A stretch of DNA of 50,508 nt. It comes from Candidatus Micrarchaeia archaeon. Its GTDB lineage: Archaea > Micrarchaeota > Micrarchaeia > Anstonellales > Bilamarchaeaceae. Both the position numbers and the translations under genes were made by a program. The number at the start of each line of letters is the position of its first letter. Position 1 is the first letter of the stretch. Below are positions 5,866-32,282 of this stretch, piece by piece. The stretch lies in NCBI GenBank assembly GCA_033853355.1, contig JAWOLP010000002.1:1-50508 (forward strand). Reading direction: 5' to 3'. The notes beneath the pieces were generated by a model that searched no databases, was not told where the DNA came from, and worked only from the letters and a program-made list of their open reading frames with translations.

Positions 5866-5999
5866 GTTCCTATATTATTAGTCACCATTTAAATTGCATG
5901 CGAATGGAACGGAAAACGGTTTTTTTGAGCGCATTTCCCCACAATCGGCCGTAAATGCACCCGGCGGTTAAAAAATACGACGGGGATTTTCAACAATAA

Positions 6000-6028
6000 G
6001 TTTTGATCAAACTTATTCTAAAAGTTTG
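6000..6028 (+). repeat. Palindromic REP-like module A copy (GTTTTGATCAAACTTATTCTAAAAGTTTG)
   Basis: GTTTTG head plus CAAACTT/AAGTTTG stem; same layout as the copies at 23502 and in both tRNA introns. Confidence 0.6.
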
Positions 6029-6114
6029 GACCAGTCCCCTCCGCCCCTCATCAGCTTGGGAATATGATCAATTCATCGGAGCTTCGGATCATCCGGTGTA
6101 TCTGCGCGATGGCG

Positions 6115-6881: not shown

Positions 6882-7468
6882 GGACGGGGCAGATGATGAT
6901 CGCCGCGGTAGTCATCGTCGTGATCATCGCAGCCGCCTACTATATCCTCAACAGCCAGCCCGCCGCCCCCAAGCCGTATCACACGCACGCCGACTTCAAG
7001 GTGTACCTGAACGGCACCGCGGTCAACTTCTCGCAGGCGAAGTACATGTCCACGGACAACTACAGCCTGGACCCGAAGGTCCACATGCACGACATGGACG
7101 GCGACCTGATCCACTACCATGCGAAGAACGTCACCATGGCTTACTTCTTCCGCACGCTCAACATGACATACAACTCGACCTGCTTCGCGCCCGGCAATTC
7201 GAGCTCCTACTGCGACGACCAGGACGAGCGCCTGAGGATGTTCGTCCGGCACAGCGGAGGGAACTGGACCGAGGTGCAGGATGGGCCGGATTACGTGTTC
7301 ATCGACCTGGACCAGATCCTCATCACCTACGGCCCGGCAGGAGCCGACGTGAGCGCCGAGGAAGCGACGGTCACGGACAAGGCGTGCATCGAGTCCCAGA
7401 AATGCCCGGAGCGCGGCAACGCCACCGACCTCACCTGCGCCGGAGACGTCTGCCAGGCCCCCACTTGA
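6878..7468 (+). CDS. Membrane-anchored protein with His motifs (HTHADF…HMHD..G..H)
   Basis: N-terminal transmembrane helix; ATGA overlap with the ATP-cone gene; Cys-rich C-terminus. Confidence 0.75.
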   Translation: MRTGQMMIAAVVIVVIIAAAYYILNSQPAAPKPYHTHADFKVYLNGTAVNFSQAKYMSTDNYSLDPKVHMHDMDGDLIHYHAKNVTMAYFFRTLNMTYNSTCFAPGNSSSYCDDQDERLRMFVRHSGGNWTEVQDGPDYVFIDLDQILITYGPAGADVSAEEATVTDKACIESQKCPERGNATDLTCAGDVCQAPT

Positions 7469-7500: not shown

Positions 7501-7983
7501 TCACGAATAGACGATCCTTATCTGCTCCCCGTCCTCGAGCGGCAGGTCGCCATAGAGGCCGCTCCTCGTGCCATTGACATAGACGGCGAGGGTATGGTTG
7601 CCGTCCGAGCAGTAGTCGAAGATGCACCGGCTGTCGAACCTCTTCCCCCACACGTAGAAGAAGTCCTTCAGGTAGAACCGCATCGGCCAGGGCGATTCGA
7701 CATGTATCCTGCCGCTATCGTCATGGGTGTGGATCACCCGCAGCCCGTTCTCCGAGATCCCGATGCCGGCAGGTATCGTCTGGTTCACGCCTTCTATCTC
7801 GATCGATAGCTGGGGGTGGATGTGGAGCTTGAGGGGGACGCCCTCGCTTATGTTCACGTCGAGGACGCTCACGTTCGGCGGGAGCGGCGGAGGAGGGAGG
7901 AGATCGTAGGCCGCCGGGATCGCGAGGGCGATCAGGAGGAAGAGCGCGGCTGCGGCCGCTGCGTAGAACCAGAATCTGCCCAT
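7501..7983 (-). CDS. Membrane-anchored protein with His motifs (HIHPQL…HTHDDSGRIH)
   Basis: N-terminal transmembrane helix; same motif layout as 6878..7468. Confidence 0.78.
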   Translation of the reverse strand: MGRFWFYAAAAAALFLLIALAIPAAYDLLPPPPLPPNVSVLDVNISEGVPLKLHIHPQLSIEIEGVNQTIPAGIGISENGLRVIHTHDDSGRIHVESPWPMRFYLKDFFYVWGKRFDSRCIFDYCSDGNHTLAVYVNGTRSGLYGDLPLEDGEQIRIVYS

Positions 7984-15602: not shown

Positions 15603-15732
15603 CCCGCCAACGGCTTTCGCAGAAGCCGAGCTGGCAGAACGTTCTGGGTATTTTTTGCAGAAAAGTAACCCCAGTCTCTACTCTCCGTTACCGGAGTCCA
15701 CGCCAACCCGAAGGGTTGGCCAGTGGACAAAA

Positions 15733-15748
15733 ACGCCCCGGGGAAGAT
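15733..15748 (-). repeat. 16-bp duplicate of the tRNA-Asn 3' end (att-like scar)
   Basis: ACGCCCCGGGGAAGAT occurs at 15733-15748 and at 15799-15814. Confidence 0.7.
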
Positions 15749-15799
15749 GCCGGCGCTTCGCGCCGTCCTTCCCCTGGGCTCCGCTCACTTCGTTCGCTA

Positions 15800-15925
15800 C
15801 GCCCCGGGGAAGATTTGAACTTCCGGCCTGCTGATCTCCACCTTTTAGGACAAAGTGGAGCCAAAACTGGCTCTCCATCTCCTAAAGATAACAGTCAGCC
15901 GCTCTACCGACTGAGCTACCGAGGC
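15800..15925 (-). tRNA. tRNA-Asn(GTT) with a 53-nt intron at 37/38 (15836-15888)
   Basis: GCCTCGG/CCGGGGC acceptor, GCTGA-CTGTTA|A-TCAGC anticodon arm, GTTCAAATC T-loop; relaxed BHB; no encoded CCA. Confidence 0.92.
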
Positions 15926-16007
15926 AAAAAGCAGAAGGTATTTCGGGACTAGCGATTTAAATGCTTGCGCTTTTTCCCTTCCTGGTGGGGGCATCCTGCG
16001 CAGGCGG

Positions 16008-22604: not shown

Positions 22605-23024
22605 ATGGCCATGAAGACCTGCCGTGCAGAAGCGAGCGAGGACAGGATATCGGACGCTTTCCCCCGCATCAAAGGGCCCCAGGCCCCCGACGCGCACCCC
22701 CTCCATGAGAACGTCCTTGCGCTTCCGTCAGCGTCATCGCGCGACTTCCGCACCCTCGGCGAAATGGCGGATTATGTCGACTCCCATGATCCGGAAGGGG
22801 CAAGGACGCTCAAGCACCACAATCTTATCGCGCTCGTGAGCTGTATCGAGCTTTCCGGAAGCGATGAGCGGTCGAAGTCCCTCTACTCGGCTAGGCTCAG
22901 GTGGCGCCTTTCGAAGCTGCCCTCCGCGGCCCTCGGCCTCCTGGAAGAGAAATCGCCCTCGGATATCGTCCGGGCTGCCGCATCCGGCCTGCTCCAGGAG
23001 CGGGATCCTACACGTCGAGTATGA
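22605..23024 (+). CDS. Hypothetical protein
   Basis: ORF ~20 bp after TTTTAAA; no motif. Confidence 0.55.
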   Translation: MAMKTCRAEASEDRISDAFPRIKGPQAPDAHPLHENVLALPSASSRDFRTLGEMADYVDSHDPEGARTLKHHNLIALVSCIELSGSDERSKSLYSARLRWRLSKLPSAALGLLEEKSPSDIVRAAASGLLQERDPTRRV

Positions 23025-23439
23025 CGAACGCCCTCCAGCCGCCTTCCTTCTCCTCGACCTTGAACATGTGCCAGCTGACGGCCTTCACGTCGACTAGCAG
23101 CTCGTGCTTTTTTGGGTCGATGGGCTCGCCTTTGATGCTCGCCCGCAGCTTCAGGCCTTTTCCGCCTTCGCTTATCTTGAGCCTATACTCCCGGAAAAGC
23201 AGGACGTCCGCATCCTTGTAGAATATGAGCTCCTGGAGGAACTTGTGGAGCAGCCTCTCGGCGTCCTTCTCGTCCAGCTCGAACCTCCTCTCCTCCTTCG
23301 CGCTCACGCTGGCGAGGTCCTTGACCTGGGTGTTCATGAGCGCTTCGCCGGCGCTCACGAACATCTCCTCGATGGTCCTGCCGCTGGCCTCGAACGCAAC
23401 GTCCGCTATCGATACATCATCCACGAACCGATAAGGCAT
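23008..23439 (-). CDS. Archease (RtcB activator)
   Basis: YRFVDDVSIADVAFEASG, FLQELIFYKD, DVKAVSWH, AFVILDV. Confidence 0.93.
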   Translation of the reverse strand: MPYRFVDDVSIADVAFEASGRTIEEMFVSAGEALMNTQVKDLASVSAKEERRFELDEKDAERLLHKFLQELIFYKDADVLLFREYRLKISEGGKGLKLRASIKGEPIDPKKHELLVDVKAVSWHMFKVEEKEGGWRAFVILDV

Positions 23440-23462: not shown

Positions 23463-23530
23463 CATTTTCGCGAGCGGCTGCGAGCGAAAATTAGCAACCG
23501 CGTTTTTGTGCCCTTTTTTCTAAAAAGGGC
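23463..23530 (+). repeat. Intergenic composite palindromic repeat (module B + module A), homologous to the 3' half of the tRNA-Glu intron
   Basis: CATTTTCGCGAGCGGCTGCGAGCGAAAATTAGCAA-N4-GTTTTTGTGCCCTTTTTTCTAAAAAGGGC versus 30993-31062. Confidence 0.8.
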
Positions 23531-23621
23531 GAACCAGTCCCCCCAAGCCCCTCATTCGCTTGGCATAAGTTGGCCATATCATCGGGGCTCCGGGATCATC
23601 CGGAGATGGATCGGCGGCAAG

Positions 23622-24497
23622 CTATATAATGCACCGCTCCATCAGCTCCCTGACCTCCTCCCTGCGCTTAGACGCCCCCTTGCCTATGAATACGAGCTCG
23701 GTCCTGTAGCAGTCGTACTCCTCGATGGAGTACCTTCCGGCCACGTAGTTGACGAAGAATCCCGCCTCGCTGGTCGCGAAGAAGCCCTTGCACCGATATA
23801 TCTCCGGCGGAAGCGCCTCGATGGCCTCGACCATCCTGTCCCTGTCGAACCTCTCGTCCGACACGAAATCGAAATAATCGAACTCGATCCGATGGGTTTT
23901 GTGGGGGTGGAGGGGCGCGGCGCGCTTCACCCCGAACAGCACGGCCGTATCGAACTCGCACTTCACGGTCTCGATCATGACCGAGCGCGGGTTGAGGCGC
24001 CGGACTCCGGCAGACACGCCCTCCAGCGCCCGCTCGTCGATGAGGTCGATCTTGTTCATCACCAGGATGTCCGCCAGCTCGATCTGCTCGCGGCCGGTAT
24101 GCCCAAGCGACGGGAACCTCACGAGCGAATCGCAGTCGACGACCGTGACGATGGCGTCCAGCCTCACCCCGTCTATGTTGTCGATGACGTCCTGCGCCAG
24201 CGCCGTCGGCTCGGCCACGCCGGTCGTCTCGACGATTATCCATTCAGGCTGCACCTTCTCGAGCATCTCCTTCACTGCCGCCTCGAACTCCCCCGAGAGC
24301 GAGCAGCAGACGCAGCCCCCCGATAGCTCTGCCATCCGGATGTCCTTCCCCTCGATGATGCGGCTGTCTATCGCTATGTCGCCGAACTCGTTCATCAGTA
24401 TCGCGATACGCATCCTGCTCTCGTCGGCTATCCTGCGGAGGAGCGTCGTCTTTCCGGAGCCGAGATAGCCTGTTATGATCGTGACCGGGACAGACAT
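23622..24497 (-). CDS. COG0523/CobW family G3E GTPase (metallochaperone)
   Basis: GYLGSGKTT, NEFG, GCVCC, ETTG, NKID, CobW_C-like tail. Confidence 0.93.
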   Translation of the reverse strand: MSVPVTIITGYLGSGKTTLLRRIADESRMRIAILMNEFGDIAIDSRIIEGKDIRMAELSGGCVCCSLSGEFEAAVKEMLEKVQPEWIIVETTGVAEPTALAQDVIDNIDGVRLDAIVTVVDCDSLVRFPSLGHTGREQIELADILVMNKIDLIDERALEGVSAGVRRLNPRSVMIETVKCEFDTAVLFGVKRAAPLHPHKTHRIEFDYFDFVSDERFDRDRMVEAIEALPPEIYRCKGFFATSEAGFFVNYVAGRYSIEEYDCYRTELVFIGKGASKRREEVRELMERCII

Positions 24498-25815: not shown

Positions 25816-26271
25816 ATGCGCAACAAGCTCATCGGGCCGCTGAGGCAGGGGAAGGCGGACCTCACCTTCAGGCTCGGCGCGAGGGACGTCCTGGTGGACC
25901 GGCTCTTCGACCCTCAGGACCAGATGGAGGCGTTCGCCAAAAGCGTCGTCCCGAAGAAGCTCTCGGTGCTCTCGCTCCAGCTCCAGTGCCTCGGATGCCC
26001 TGACGAAGGGATCGAGAGTCTCCTCCGCCACCTGGCCGTGGAGAAGCGGCTGAGCCTTCGCGAGCTCTCGGACTACCTCGACATCGTTGGGACCTGCGTC
26101 GGCAGCCTGCCGCAGCCGCTGGATGTGATCCGGGCAGTGGCGGACAACGCCCTCGGTTTCCAGCCTGACGGCCGGAGCGCTCTGGCTTGCGCCATGCGCC
26201 TTCTCCGCGATTTCGCTTCCATGCCCCCCAGAGACGCCCCGGCGGCACTCGCCGCGCTGAGAGGGAACTAG
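25816..26271 (+). CDS. Hypothetical protein
   Basis: TTTAAATA ~25 bp upstream; genome-typical codons. Confidence 0.65.
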   Translation: MRNKLIGPLRQGKADLTFRLGARDVLVDRLFDPQDQMEAFAKSVVPKKLSVLSLQLQCLGCPDEGIESLLRHLAVEKRLSLRELSDYLDIVGTCVGSLPQPLDVIRAVADNALGFQPDGRSALACAMRLLRDFASMPPRDAPAALAALRGN

Positions 26272-27737
26272 CCCTTGACGTTCCCTATCGGGATGAGCTT
26301 CGCGACCTTCCTGGAGATCCCGGCCTTGTGCGTGGCGTCTATCACGTCGTCGATGTCCTTGTACGCAGCGCCGGCCTCCTCGGCCAGGCCTCCCATCGAA
26401 ACGCTCTTGACGTAGATCCCGCGGCTTTCCATGTCCTTGAGTAGTTTGTCCCCCCTGAACATGCTCTTGGCCCGGGTCCTGGACATCGTCCTCCCGCTCC
26501 CGTGCGCGGTGGTGTAGAACGTCTCGGCGCCGCTCTCGGTCCCGACAAGGAGGTAGGAGCCGGTCTCCATGCTGCCCCCGATGATCACGGGCTGTCCGTC
26601 GTCCCTGTACCTCGGCATCAGCTCCGGCCTCCCCGGGCCGTACGCCGCGGTCGCTCCCTTCCGGTGCACGATCAGCTCCCTCCACTGCCCGTCCACCTTG
26701 TGCTTCTCCAGCGAGGCGCGGTTGTGCGCCACGTCGTATACCTGCTTCATGCCGAGCTTCTCCGCATCGGTCTTGAAGACCTCGGCGAAGGCCTCGCGCA
26801 GGCGGTGGACTATCGTCTGCCGGTTCGCGAAGCTCATGTTCACGCCGCACTTCATGGCCGAGAAATAGTCCTGGCCCTCGGGGGAATTGAAGGGCGCGCA
26901 GGCCAGCTCGCGGTCGAGTATCTTTATTCCGTACTTGCTCTCCATGACGTTGAGGAAGACCTCAAGGTAATCGGTCGCCACCTGGTGTCCGAACCCCCTT
27001 GAGCCGCAGTGGAACATTATGACGACCTGGTCCTCGAACAGGCCCCACTTCTTCGCCAGCGCCTTGTCGATTATGTTCTCGGGCTTCACGTGCTGTATCT
27101 CCAGGTAATGGTTCCCGCTGCCGAGGGTGCCTATCTGGTCCTTCCCGCGGTCGACGGCCTTGGCGCTCACCTTCCGCTGGTCCGCGCCCTCGGCCCTGCC
27201 ACGCATCTCGGTGACCTCGAGGTCGTCGCTCCAGCCGTAGCCCTCCCGGACGCACCACTCGCCCCCCTCCTCGATAACCTTCCTGAAGGTCGCCGAATCG
27301 AGCTTGACGAAGCCCTTGCTTCCCACTCCGGCCGGCACCCGCTCGAAAAGCCGGTTCACCAGCTGCTTCAGGTGCGGCTCCACGTCCCTGACCGTGAGGT
27401 TCGTGAGTATGAGCCTCATGCCGCAGTTGATGTCGAAGCCGATGCCGCCAGGGCTTATCACGCCCTCGTTCGCGTCCATCGCCGCGACGCCGCCGATCGG
27501 GAACCCGTAGCCGCTGTGGCCGTCGGGCATGCAATAGGCGTATTTCACTATCCCCGGGAGGGTGGCGACGTTGGTTATCTGGTCGTACACGTGGAGGTCC
27601 ATCTGGTTCAGCACCGCCTCGCTCGCGTAGATCCTGGCCGGCACCCTCATCCCGTCCTTGAAATCGGTGCCCACCTCCCACACGTAATCGCTGATCTTCT
27701 TGAAATCCGGCTTCCTGAACTCTCGGTTGAAATCCAT
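26268..27737 (-). CDS. rtcB: tRNA-splicing ligase RtcB
   Basis: MPDGHSGYGFPIGG, GFDINCG, GTLGSGNHYLE, H.GSRG.GH, HRKGAT, HGSGR. Confidence 0.97.
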   Translation of the reverse strand: MDFNREFRKPDFKKISDYVWEVGTDFKDGMRVPARIYASEAVLNQMDLHVYDQITNVATLPGIVKYAYCMPDGHSGYGFPIGGVAAMDANEGVISPGGIGFDINCGMRLILTNLTVRDVEPHLKQLVNRLFERVPAGVGSKGFVKLDSATFRKVIEEGGEWCVREGYGWSDDLEVTEMRGRAEGADQRKVSAKAVDRGKDQIGTLGSGNHYLEIQHVKPENIIDKALAKKWGLFEDQVVIMFHCGSRGFGHQVATDYLEVFLNVMESKYGIKILDRELACAPFNSPEGQDYFSAMKCGVNMSFANRQTIVHRLREAFAEVFKTDAEKLGMKQVYDVAHNRASLEKHKVDGQWRELIVHRKGATAAYGPGRPELMPRYRDDGQPVIIGGSMETGSYLLVGTESGAETFYTTAHGSGRTMSRTRAKSMFRGDKLLKDMESRGIYVKSVSMGGLAEEAGAAYKDIDDVIDATHKAGISRKVAKLIPIGNVKG

Positions 27738-30476: not shown

Positions 30477-30820
30477 ACAGGAGCCTCATCCTAGGAGGCC
30501 TGGCCCTGCTCCTGCTGCTTGGATGCGCAGGCAGGCCGGGGTATCAGGCCCCTGCGCAGCCTTCTCCCGCTTCCAGCGGGATGCAGATCGGCGACTCGGA
30601 CATAGCTCCCCAGCCGACCGTCAACGAGAGCGACACCCTCTCAAACGAGCCCGTCGTCCCTCCTGACAACGGCAGCACTGCCGAGGCGGGGAACTCTACG
30701 CCGGCCAGCGGCTCGCAGAACCTGAGCGCCGGGAGCTTCCCCAACGACTCGGACCTTTTGGTGGACAACACCACCAACGAGGACCTGATCAGCCAGCAGG
30801 ATGTTGTCGAGCCGCCCTGA
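30473..30820 (+). CDS. Low-complexity lipoprotein
   Basis: Lipobox LLGC; ATGA overlap with the previous gene. Confidence 0.75.
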   Translation: MNRSLILGGLALLLLLGCAGRPGYQAPAQPSPASSGMQIGDSDIAPQPTVNESDTLSNEPVVPPDNGSTAEAGNSTPASGSQNLSAGSFPNDSDLLVDNTTNEDLISQQDVVEPP

Positions 30821-30876
30821 GCCTTTTTTCCCTTTTTCCTATATTTTATAAAGATTCCTCAGTTAATTGTGTTTGA

Positions 30877-31102
30877 GCTCCTGTAGTCTAGTCCGGTCAA
30901 GGACAACGGACTCTCATCCGCCTTTTGGGAAAAGGCGGCCCAAAACTGGCTGTTGGAAAACCCTGAAGGGTTTTCCGGCCTCTTCACAAGACCATTTTTG
31001 CGAGCGAAAAGCGAGCAAAAATTAGCAAGTCTGTTTTGGTCCCGCTTTTCCCCAAAAGCGGGGAGGCCTCCGTAAACCCGGGTTCAAATCCCGGCAGGAG
31101 CA
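30877..31102 (+). tRNA. tRNA-Glu(CTC) with a 151-nt intron at 37/38 (30917-31067)
   Basis: GCTCCTG/CAGGAGC acceptor, ACGGA-CTCTCA|C-TCCGT arm, GTTCAAATC; BHB with CUCU:GGAG central helix; TTTTATAAA upstream at 30844. Confidence 0.92.
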
Positions 31103-31104
31103 TT

Positions 31105-31141
31105 GTTTTGCTAAAATTTCCCGAAGGGAAATTTGCAAAAC
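31105..31141. repeat. Palindrome GTTTTGCTAAAATTTCCC-GAA-GGGAAATTTGCAAAAC (module C), possibly a terminator
   Basis: Hairpin directly after tRNA-Glu; CCC-(T)GAA-GGG loop also at 15702-15720 and 30955-30976. Confidence 0.6.
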
Positions 31142-31172
31142 TCACACTTACAGAGAAGCTCTTCCTTATCAG

Positions 31173-32282
31173 CTATCGTCCGGCTTCCTTTATGCTCCTG
31201 ACGTACTCGTACCATGCGGGTTTCGGCTTCCCCTGCACGGTAAGCAATCCGAAATAGTTCTCCATCGCCGGGAAGGACTTCCAATAGCTGTCCGAGAACC
31301 GGTAAACCCCTAGTCCGTGTATCTTCTCGCTCTCAAGCGCGTGCTTGCATGCCGAAGCCACGTACTTGGCCTGCTTGTCCTCGTTGAACCACAGGATGTG
31401 CGGGCCGGCCGGATAGCCGGTCTCGATTATATAGACCGGAAGCCCGGACTCCTTCGCGGCCACATCGGCGAACTTGCCCATGCCGCCCGCGCTCGTCCTG
31501 TTCGGGTCATAATAGCTCGGATAAGGATCGACCCCGATGATGTCGGAATACTTCGCGTACATCTTCCACTTCCTCCTCGATCCTATGTAGCCCAGGTTGA
31601 TGACGATCTTCGATCCCGGGGACTCGGCCCTCACGACCTCCGAGAGGGCTTTCAGCACCGGCTCCTTGTTCTTCTCGTCGAGCCAGATCCACCCGGTCCG
31701 CCAGTCGGCTATTGTGTGCCCCAGCCACCCGTTGACCTCGTTCTCTATCTGCCAGGTATCTATCTTCCCCTTGTAATGCCGCACGATCTGCGTCGATGAC
31801 TCGACCAGCTGCGGGATATACGCCTTCAGGTCTGAAGTCGCCGCGTTTTTGGGCACGAATCGGTTGTATCCGTCTCCCACGACGGCTATGATCCCGATCC
31901 CCTCCTCGTTCATCTCATCCACGAAATTGTCGAGAGGGAACCTGTAGGCGTCGCCGACCCTGGGCTGGAAGAAGTTCCAGGGGAACCAGCACCTCACGAA
32001 GTCCACCCCGCCCCTCTTCAGGAACGCGGCCACCATCTTCGCCAGCCTTCTCGTGTCATGCTTGTTCTCGTCCGCGACGAGGGATCCTCTGAAATCCCTG
32101 TTCCCGCGCTCCTCCGGGGTTTTGCCGTCCGCCGAAGGGAGGCTGAACCTGCCGTTGTACGTCCTCCTGGCGAGCAGGTGCGGTATCACGATCGATGGCG
32201 GATCCGGCAGACCGGCATATCTCCACATGTCGTCAATGTCCACGCCGAAGTTGAACTTGCCGCCCAGGACCTTGAAAGCCAT
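31173..32282 (-). CDS. Clan GH-A glycoside hydrolase (TIM barrel)
   Basis: VRCWFPW, WQIENE (acid/base), IIETGYP (nucleophile), FGLL…KPKPAW. Confidence 0.8.
   Translation of the reverse strand: MAFKVLGGKFNFGVDIDDMWRYAGLPDPPSIVIPHLLARRTYNGRFSLPSADGKTPEERGNRDFRGSLVADENKHDTRRLAKMVAAFLKRGGVDFVRCWFPWNFFQPRVGDAYRFPLDNFVDEMNEEGIGIIAVVGDGYNRFVPKNAATSDLKAYIPQLVESSTQIVRHYKGKIDTWQIENEVNGWLGHTIADWRTGWIWLDEKNKEPVLKALSEVVRAESPGSKIVINLGYIGSRRKWKMYAKYSDIIGVDPYPSYYDPNRTSAGGMGKFADVAAKESGLPVYIIETGYPAGPHILWFNEDKQAKYVASACKHALESEKIHGLGVYRFSDSYWKSFPAMENYFGLLTVQGKPKPAWYEYVRSIKEAGR

Follow-up and report, generated by a model that had tools for sequence, protein, structure and literature searches.

A tRNA-Glu(CUC) intron made of palindromic modules in a Micrarchaeota genome, and a candidate lineage-restricted family of modular tRNA introns

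The arrival and multiplication of tRNA introns in archaea still lack a full explanation. The question is raised in concrete form by the first 50,508 nucleotides (nt) of contig JAWOLP010000002.1 (assembly GCA_033853355.1; this whole stretch is hereafter the window), in which the two halves of a tRNA-Glu(CUC) gene are separated by 151 nt of hairpin repeats. The host, which we take to be an ultrasmall soil archaeon of the Micrarchaeota, is represented by a metagenome-assembled genome (MAG; denoted as G000) of 1.47 Mb (1,473,250 bp) in 74 contigs, with 62% G+C and 76% completeness. A first-pass annotation of the window proposed that the insert is an intron resembling a miniature inverted-repeat transposable element (MITE) or a repetitive extragenic palindromic (REP) element. 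Is the insert a genuine intron, what is it made of, and what could have placed it there? Our analysis suggests that it is probably a genuine, protein-spliced intron of the bulge-helix-bulge (BHB) type and that it belongs to a proliferating family of modular introns in tRNA genes that is confined to one lineage. This module family gives a concrete lead on how such introns arrive and multiply.

The tRNA-Glu(CUC) gene and the anatomy of its intron

Read by eye, the locus shows a long insert between the 5′ and 3′ halves of a tRNA. Default ARAGORN reported no tRNA in the window, and Rfam at its gathering score missed the tRNA-Glu gene, its sole match in the window being tRNA-Asn at 15800-15925. With introns of ≤300 nt permitted, ARAGORN called a tRNA-Glu(ctc) that spans 30877-31102 and is interrupted after position 37 by a 151-nt intron. 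Once joined in silico, the two exons form a normal 75-nt tRNA-Glu(ctc) cloverleaf in ARAGORN and are identical at 75/75 positions to the intron-less tRNA-Glu(CUC) of a congener (G005), a match that fixes both intron borders to the base. The intron is thus where the first-pass annotation had placed it, and the gene comprises the following features:

30877..31102, plus strand: tRNA-Glu(CUC) gene including the intron, without encoded CCA (ARAGORN -i; the spliced form is a 75-nt cloverleaf)
30877..30916, plus strand: 5′ exon, tRNA positions 1-37, with the anticodon CTC at 30913-30915
30917..31067, plus strand: 151-nt intron at canonical position 37/38 (ARAGORN -i; borders from the identity of the joined exons to the orthologue)
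31068..31102, plus strand: 3′ exon, tRNA positions 38-73
30840..30853, plus strand: putative A/T-rich, TATA-like stretch, 24-37 nt upstream of the tRNA-Glu gene

Orthology of this gene among relatives rests on the anticodon and exon identity, because the flanking proteins gave no synteny. The two proteins that flank it in the window were never beside tRNA-Glu in the loci examined from 29 relatives, and the upstream one had three weak matches (~34-36% identity), none beside a confidently called tRNA-Glu. An E-value scan of 30800-31200 against Rfam returned two matches only, both at chance level, and the intron therefore resembles no described RNA family. No C box (UGAUGA) was seen in the intron by eye.

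Could the locus be an artefact, either a misassembled repeat junction or a dead tRNA pseudogene broken by repeats? Contigs of the DNA runs do end inside the modules described below (at 30917-30947 and 31018-31049), and the gene is invisible to default tRNA finders. Such breaks are expected because the modules are repeats, and one contig from an independent DNA run spans 30694-31310 with 0 differences, which argues that the locus is not misassembled. Against a pseudogene stand the 100% identity of the exons to an intact orthologue, the well-formed splice motif that can be drawn at the borders, the homologous introns at the same position in several congeners, and a search with ARAGORN that found no second tRNA-Glu(CUC) in this incomplete (76%) assembly. 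We take an artefact to be almost certainly the wrong explanation.

No joint that skips the tRNA-Glu intron was present in the contigs of four DNA runs. A 157-nt contig of run X4 joins a related tRNA-Glu 5′ exon (30876-30916, 4 differences) straight to a 3′ exon with the T-loop TTCGAAT, and has different upstream DNA. Given the 4 differences and the other flanks, this intron-less tRNA-Glu represents another organism in the sample.

Within the intron, two inverted terminal modules of ~50 nt (A′ and A) enclose two further hairpins (C and B). Repeat searches found all four at the places proposed in the first-pass annotation. Bit scores below are those of a covariance model (R1) built from an alignment of 40 module copies (A1):

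30914..30964, plus strand: module A′, 5′ terminal, a hairpin followed by the tail CCCAAAAC at 30939-30946 (R1 57.1 bits; inverted-repeat search)
30955..30976, plus strand: module C hairpin with a 10-bp stem and a 2-nt loop (inverted-repeat search, 100% complementary)
30993..31029, plus strand: module B hairpin, then TTAGCAA (inverted- and direct-repeat search)
31015..31066, minus strand: module A, 3′ terminal, inverted relative to A′, with GTTTTGG at 31034-31040 and the hairpin at 31041-31062 (R1 47 bits; inverted-repeat search)

All base pairs of the stems form in A′ (30918-30926/30930-30938, 9/9 bp), in C (30955-30964/30967-30976, 10/10 bp), and in A (31041-31049/31054-31062, 9/9 bp), and the stem of B lies at 30994-31001/31015-31022. 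The ends of the intron constitute a 34-nt inverted repeat that is 79% complementary (30918-30951/31028-31061).

Modules in the host genome and among its congeners

A BLAST search of the intron against the MAG revealed that its first 30 nt recur on many contigs. Subsequently, nhmmer recovered 49 module copies at E<0.01, and R1 recovered 57 matches at E≤0.01. Counts from R1 are lower bounds (150 of ~300 candidates were scored in the MAG and 148 in each relative genome) and are biased toward GC-rich stems like those of G000. The unit (~50 nt) comprises a 9-bp hairpin with five variable stem pairs and a U4-NGG-A4 core, then the tail CCCAAAAC, some five free bases, and TTGCTA. A pattern of this motif with ≤2 mismatches matched the window 5 times versus 0.00 expected (100 shuffles). 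Collectively, these counts bear out the proposal that the modules are a real multi-copy family, both in the window and genome-wide.

Pairing in the stem was evaluated across 70 model-aligned copies from G000 and related genomes, in an alignment that is fitted to R1 and leans toward structure. In this alignment, 94.9% of cells pair versus 83.6% in shuffles, and 71 cells show changes on both sides of the stem versus 24.7 in shuffles, with 0/500 shuffles as high; slid controls paired at 42-75%. Many stem variants that were visible before any modelling agree with compensatory maintenance. Compensatory changes preserve the hairpin, and its U4/A4 core and loop, like the CCCAAAAC tail, are near-invariant across species. 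Hairpins B and C also show compensatory differences between intron copies, including a hairpin homologous to C in the tRNA-Glu(UUC) intron.

The tRNA genes of G000 were compiled as 41 spans (6,930 bp, including one contig-edge duplicate) from ARAGORN, a T-arm/acceptor scan, and context reading. ARAGORN with introns permitted reported 23 tRNA genes, several with wrong anticodons, and 12 places reached the Rfam tRNA cut-off; hand curation yielded ~40 tRNA genes. Brute-force deletion of introns, in which 212,342 variants around 49 modules were passed through ARAGORN, was too permissive to be useful, and the T-arm/acceptor scan and hand curation were adopted for this reason. Because standard tRNA finders miss such genes, the tRNA complements of Micrarchaeota MAGs are under-called.

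These spans account for 0.47% of the assembly yet contain 39 of the 57 module matches, a ~146-fold concentration, and at least one match is present in 28/41 spans. Modules occur at position 37/38 (in tRNA-Glu and tRNA-Lys twice each, in tRNA-Asn, -Ser, -Tyr, and -Gly, and in others), in the D-loop, and in the T-loop, with D-loop contexts such as GTAGCTCAGT running directly into the module hairpin. In every context read, the hairpin adjoins the exon and the tail is directed toward the interior of the intron, such that modules run hairpin-to-tail at 5′ ends and tail-to-hairpin at 3′ ends.

Composite introns with the A′-C-B-A layout were identified in tRNA-Glu(CUC), Glu(UUC), Thr(UGU), Val(UAC), and Ala(CGC), as well as in a sixth tRNA left unassigned (anticodons read by eye), and 6/6 are co-oriented with the host tRNA. 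Four of the others are 73-80% identical to the tRNA-Glu(CUC) intron over 113-167 nt, and B-like hairpins are present in the five other composite introns and at 23463-23497. Short introns of ~53-58 nt look like composites minus the middle and part of one end. As in the Thermoproteales, closely related introns are found in different isoacceptor tRNAs at non-canonical as well as canonical positions.

That modules also exist free, as the first-pass annotation had claimed, was confirmed genome-wide: 18/57 matches lie outside tRNA genes, although one of these is a hairpin on contig C45 re-read on the other strand. Five free copies are located directly behind tRNA 3′ ends and one at the 3′ end of the signal recognition particle (SRP) RNA, and the remaining ones share their spacers with many other hairpin repeats. 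Relative to neighboring genes, free copies are found in both orientations. Within the window, the proposed copies near 23500 (R1 match at 23484-23534, with a B-like hairpin adjoining) and in the tRNA-Asn intron held up. Those near 6000 (5982-6032; 9.4 bits, E 0.28) and 15702 (15694-15752; 9.9 bits, E 0.2) are not significant alone, and the one at 31105-31141 proved to be a different hairpin. The features are:

23463..23534, minus strand: free module A with a B-like hairpin, in the spacer that separates archease from a cobW-like gene (R1 52.5 bits at 23484-23534)
15799..15926, minus strand: tRNA-Asn(GUU), whose 53-nt intron has a diverged module A at its end (15834-15885) (ARAGORN; Rfam tRNA 59 bits; R1 26.3 bits)
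31105..31141, plus strand: 3′ trailer hairpin of tRNA-Glu, of a different type from module A (inverted-repeat search; R1 5.7 bits)

Hairpins that by eye are similar to the trailer hairpin at 31105-31141 follow free modules on contigs C26 and C64.

Among relatives, R1 detected the module in 37 of the 39 other genomes of the genus, and copy number across the 40 congeners varies from 0 to 95 matches. A sample of 121 genomes of the order included 31 with a module match, and the only three genomes beyond the genus with more than 3 copies had 25, 14, and 6; the module is therefore rare outside the genus. An exact-pattern scan of one genome for each of 185,579 species detected at least 110 stretches. 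Among the 80 matches listed, 77 had archaeal titles, mostly Candidatus Micrarchaeota, Bilamarchaeum (which sits in Micrarchaeia in the NCBI taxonomy), or Bilamarchaeaceae, and three had bacterial ones.

Across eight congeners, one of them G000, the orthologous tRNA-Glu(CUC) intron measures anywhere between 0 and 151 nt and hence is variable, which answers the comparison between relatives that the first-pass annotation had suggested:

G005: no intron
G004: 28 nt (hairpin plus four exon-pairing bases and two bulge bases)
G022: 51 nt
G016: 76 nt, belonging to a different repeat type
G021: 102 nt
G018: ~106 nt, with a further intron in the D-loop
G006: 135 nt
G000 (host genome): 151 nt

Introns of tRNA-Glu(UUC) range from 48 to 187 nt among congeners. 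In a tree of the splicing endonuclease EndA, genomes with 19-95 module copies and 51-151-nt tRNA-Glu(CUC) introns form one crown clade (approximate likelihood-ratio test support 96), from which the 0- and 28-nt forms are excluded. Lengths of 28, 51, 102, ~106, 135, and 151 nt make up a graded series that fits the growth of an older small intron by module addition; shrinkage by deletion between repeated strands may be an alternative, and the direction of change is one that we infer. Of the intron gain or expansion proposed in the first-pass annotation, expansion of an older small intron would account for the graded sizes better than fresh entry.

Several further observations concern individual module sites. 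In G000, the last 21 nt of tRNA-Gly(CCC) recur ~150 nt downstream (C45:37880-38260, minus strand), and between the two copies lies a segment with a module and a C-type hairpin at its start, an arrangement reminiscent of a target duplication that is long or att-like. The tRNA-Met(CAU)-like gene at C73:19476-19660 (plus strand) has two introns; its T-loop intron carries a module, and its canonical intron is of non-module type with GATGA/CTGA-like boxes and may be a C/D-box guide. A module begins at the 3′ end of the archaeal SRP RNA (C5:4035-4336; 65.5 bits versus a gathering score of 96.5, with the full model covered). Spacers with free modules (e.g., C64:11600-11770, C26:21100-21270, and C55:13000-13215) are mosaics of other recurring hairpins, with units such as AAACTTCCTGAGG/AAACTTCAGCCGG, ATTTGCCC...GGGCAAAT, and TTTGATGAAACTTTGCCC..., and CTTTCC often stands just before free modules. 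On the minus strand of the window, a shared 60-70-nt sequence precedes both the weak module near 6000 and the free module near 23500 (6030-6080 and 23535-23600); it reads CCGATGA ... CCAAGC..ATGAGGGGC...GGGGACTGG with C/D-box-like spacing. A BLAST search with 23526-23660 found no further copies in the genome, and a reading of 6030-6080 and 23535-23600 as C/D-box small RNAs is unconvincing, in that the D boxes would be CCAA/CUGG.

Splicing and spread of the modules

The first-pass annotation assumed that EndA and RtcB splice the intron out, and the host encodes both, together with archease. The EndA of G000 (391 aa) aligns over residues 4-391 to residues 5-387 of PDB 4fz2_A (E 4.6e-133), and the Pfam domains tRNA_int_endo and tRNA_int_endo_N both match. 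According to the available parts of the relevant papers, PDB 4fz2 is the epsilon2 EndA of ARMAN-2 (PMC3488258, PMC12397907). The alignment indicates that the EndA of G000 is likewise an epsilon2-type, three-unit enzyme in a single polypeptide, as judged from its sequence. The genes for the ligation step are in the window:

26268..27737, minus strand: RtcB RNA ligase (PF01139, 559 bits at 26271-27581; open reading frame, ORF)
23008..23439, minus strand: archease, of the RtcB cofactor family (PF01951, 131 bits)

The distance of RtcB and archease to the interrupted tRNA-Glu gene is 3-8 kb and that to the interrupted tRNA-Asn gene 7-12 kb, and the leader of archease contains a free module copy. 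A second EndA-like protein of 165 aa (catalytic-domain match of 43 bits) is encoded at C64:2770-3267 of G000 (L074:1291-1788).

The BHB motif that can be drawn across the intron borders has 3-nt bulges and a 4-bp central helix (30911-30914/31062-31065) between flanking helices (30906-30910/31069-31073 and 30918-30921/31058-31061). Predicted cuts fall after 30916 and after 31067, each behind the second bulge base:

30906..30921, plus strand: predicted 5′ side of the BHB, with the anticodon stem (30906-30910), central helix (30911-30914), bulge (30915-30917), and outer helix (30918-30921)
31058..31073, plus strand: predicted 3′ side of the BHB, with the outer helix (31058-31061), central helix (31062-31065), bulge (31066-31068), and anticodon stem (31069-31073)

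In the predicted minimum free energy (MFE) fold (-81.2 kcal/mol), A′ is paired with A. The strict hBHBh′ register, obtained by a constrained fold, is 2.9 kcal/mol above the MFE (-78.3 kcal/mol), and a fold with two local hairpins is 7.0 kcal/mol above it (-74.2 kcal/mol). Pair probabilities of the outer helix in the predicted ensemble are 0.51-0.996. The claim that the two A copies pair to form the outer helix is thus supported as a prediction of the MFE fold.

We suggest the following course of events. In the pre-tRNA, the terminal modules would either pair with each other or each fold locally, the hairpin-proximal bases would provide the outer helix of the splice motif, and the four intron bases GGAG would pair with anticodon-loop bases 32-35. 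The epsilon2-type EndA could then cut at the two predicted sites (after 30916 and after 31067), and RtcB with archease would presumably join the exons. Spread and growth of the family may take place in DNA, with modules being copied or recombined between tRNA genes and added to existing small introns. Broad-specificity splicing would make a tRNA gene a safe site, and some module copies may have settled at other genes' 3′ ends.

Several points weigh against this interpretation. Spread is not demonstrably recent, since the composites within the genome are only 73-80% alike. No copying enzyme for the modules was identified, no filled/empty site pair was found between near-identical strains, and those free copies and intron borders that were inspected by eye showed no target-site duplications, although no systematic search was made. 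In the free ensemble, the strict register of the central helix has a probability of ~0.01, and a shifted register is preferred. The tRNA spans and several anticodons were curated by hand from a 76% complete MAG, such that the list is surely incomplete, and the EndA tree is a quick single-gene tree from which G016 and G009 are absent. Lastly, ~9/17 free copies directly follow, in transcript orientation, a stop codon or the 3′ end of an RNA gene, a count that is soft given long spurious ORFs in a GC-rich genome. Together with the conservation of loop and tail, this placement could mean that the module has a function and is not a passenger.

If so, the module would be a functional RNA or DNA element under selection, acting as a helper in splice-site recognition or as a 3′-end or processing hairpin, and its copies would reflect need rather than mobility. 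The compensatory stem changes, the near-invariant U4/A4 core, loop, and CCCAAAAC tail, the hairpin that always adjoins the splice site, and the hairpin-plus-tail motifs of like form behind stop codons on giant-virus-like contigs (see below) all agree with such a role. However, congeners with the same EndA type have 0-4 copies, and two of them (94% and 90% complete) have none. The existence of an intron-less tRNA-Glu(CUC) with identical exons makes the module dispensable for this tRNA, and other repeat types fill the same positions (e.g., the 76-nt intron of G016 and an Arg(UCG) intron). We consider it unlikely that function rather than proliferation accounts for the copies.

The explanation offered in the first-pass annotation is that of a MITE or a REP/REPIN that depends on a Y1 (HUH) transposase of the IS200/IS605 or RAYT type for mobilization in trans, enters anticodon loops, and is tolerated because it is spliced out. 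The intron does have terminal inverted repeats (34 nt, 79% complementary) and a conserved, palindromic hairpin, the family is multi-copy with 18/57 copies outside tRNA genes, copy number varies from 0 to 95 among congeners, and the genus has genes for Y1 transposases (Y1_Tnp in 9/40 genomes) and the TnpB domain (in 21/40). Yet the 76% complete G000 has no Y1_Tnp, DDE_Tnp_1, or RVT_1 match and a TnpB-domain match below threshold only. Y1_Tnp presence is without relation to module copy number, being detected in 2/9 genomes with ≥36 module matches and in 1/8 with ≤4.

We scanned 12 Y1 loci (13/14 listed places) and 3 TnpB loci with the R1 filters off over ~±1.5-3 kb. A strong module was near 1/12 Y1 loci, inside a multi-intron tRNA gene that neighbors the transposase, and two transposase loci had weak module matches 1.3-2 kb away. 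No module pair brackets an ORF in the R1 match list of G000. The proposed link to an IS200/RAYT-type HUH transposase was not borne out by these scans, and the MITE/RAYT mechanism finds no support. Random insertion is also ill-fitting given the ~146-fold concentration in tRNA genes and the co-orientation of 6/6 composites, no target-site duplications were seen at the copies inspected, and a fresh insertion would not supply the 4 exon-complementary bases that the splice motif requires. What stands of the earlier proposal is a multi-copy family that varies between relatives and is presumably tolerated thanks to splicing; what does not is a general genomic repeat that enters anticodon loops, as 39/57 matches are in tRNA genes and modules occupy D- and T-loops as well. 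We regard mobilization of this kind as improbable.

Spread could alternatively have occurred at the RNA level, with excised introns re-inserted at splice-motif-like RNA sites and then reverse-transcribed into DNA. The co-orientation of 6/6 composites with the host tRNA and the strong confinement of the family to RNAs handled by EndA would be expected from such a route. Against it, the 76% complete G000 lacks an RVT_1 match, free copies occur in both orientations to neighboring genes, and we know of no reverse reaction of EndA or RtcB that would support it. We give this route very little credence.

A proliferating family of protein-spliced modular introns, the reading that we prefer, also admits a bolder form. 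The module may be a very small mobile or self-copying element that has the protein-spliced intron as its main habitat, creates and enlarges tRNA introns wherever a splice motif can form, needs no transposase of a known family, may borrow RNA-processing machinery or a palindrome-specific DNA activity, and is kin to the 3′-end hairpins of giant-virus-like contigs. We offer this form tentatively, as a possibility on the unlikely side. If it is true, it would provide the first concrete arrival route for archaeal tRNA introns and a cross-domain hairpin element.

The viral hairpins are an observation in their own right. A GC-rich form of the module pattern had 0 matches in viral contigs. An AT-rich form matched 36 stretches in viral contigs (IMG/VR; loci L243-L278), many of them labelled giant-virus MAGs, with 1 match for a reversed-order control. 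R1 detected 75 matches in those 288 kb of viral contigs, including ones that the pattern had not selected. The giant-virus-like hairpins consist of U5-NGG-A5 plus CCAAAAAC and share their form with the archaeal modules. On L254 (e.g., 6949-6999 and 7840-7891) they are just behind stop codons. One giant-virus-like contig encodes Pox_A22-like (weak, below the Pfam cut-off), DUF5767, kinase, and DEAD-helicase proteins.

Comparison with known systems

Bacterial REP, BIME, and REPIN elements and MITEs are short palindromic hairpins, often in inverted pairs, that occur in tens of copies per genome, are lineage-restricted, and vary in copy number. The modules described here resemble them in being palindromic, inverted in pairs, lineage-restricted, and strongly variable in copy number. 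They differ from the REP/REPIN-RAYT system in that no RAYT/Y1 gene is linked to them and no target duplications were seen at the copies inspected, and in that two thirds of the copies are in tRNA genes rather than extragenic.

Mobile DNA has been tied to tRNA intron gain in Caldiarchaeum subterraneum, for which the available text proposes integration of a mobile (integrase-type) element as a model for tRNA disruption (PMC3293823). That system likewise features a repeated sequence at several genomic sites; as far as this text describes it, it involves a 1.9-kb insertion, a recombinase-like ORF, and an att duplication, whereas the units here are ~50 nt and non-coding.

Within the same phylum, ARMAN-2 (Candidatus Micrarchaeum acidiphilum) has multi-intron tRNA genes, and its introns have been discussed in connection with possible foreign DNA in the accessible portion of PMC3239211. 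It shares with G000 a three-unit EndA of ~390 aa and many non-canonical tRNA introns, according to the portions available (PMC3239211, PMC12397907). These portions of both papers make no mention of shared intron families or repeats, and 'repeat', 'conserved intron', and 'sequence similarity' each have 0 occurrences in that of PMC3239211. In open full text, with subscription papers and supplements outside reach, we found no paper on hairpin-repeat tRNA introns in Micrarchaeota or DPANN.

A census of Asgard archaea reports, in the part available, cross-type intron families at 28.3% in Thermoproteales and 1.5% in Asgard (80% identity) and gives no arrival route (bioRxiv 10.64898/2026.10.13.758758). 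Its accessible text describes heavily interrupted tRNA genes, introns placed where a splice motif can form, and many of them missed by standard finders, all of which apply here. The difference from what is described there is that most introns of G000 share one module, which is also present outside tRNA genes.

The transposed tRNA introns of the Thermoproteales are the closest precedent and were reportedly described by Fujishima et al. in 2010, in Mol Biol Evol. In Thermoproteales, similar introns occur in different isodecoders at canonical and non-canonical sites, and the available text treats the mechanism as unknown and probably DNA-level (PMC4090602). As far as that text goes, the likeness to G000 includes near-alike introns across isoacceptor types, variation between related species, and a broad-specificity endonuclease. 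The host here differs in being a DPANN archaeon of the Micrarchaeota with an endonuclease of the epsilon2 type, and the shared unit differs in being a defined ~50-nt palindromic module that forms inverted ends, that is also present outside tRNA genes (in trailers and spacers), and that yields graded sizes indicative of modular growth.

The present system is also more tractable, in that the unit is short, well defined, and searchable by covariance model, that modules exist both in introns and free, and that 40 congeners span 0-95 copies with one tRNA gene in which forms that lack an intron, that have a bare hairpin, and that extend to a 151-nt mosaic of four hairpins make up a ladder of sizes. 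Intron gain and growth thus become testable by comparative genomics, population metagenomics, and in vitro cleavage, for which the enzyme structure is solved. Viewed against these systems, the modules are best described as a tRNA-intron-centred family of palindromic modules and as a variant of the intron transposition found in the Thermoproteales.

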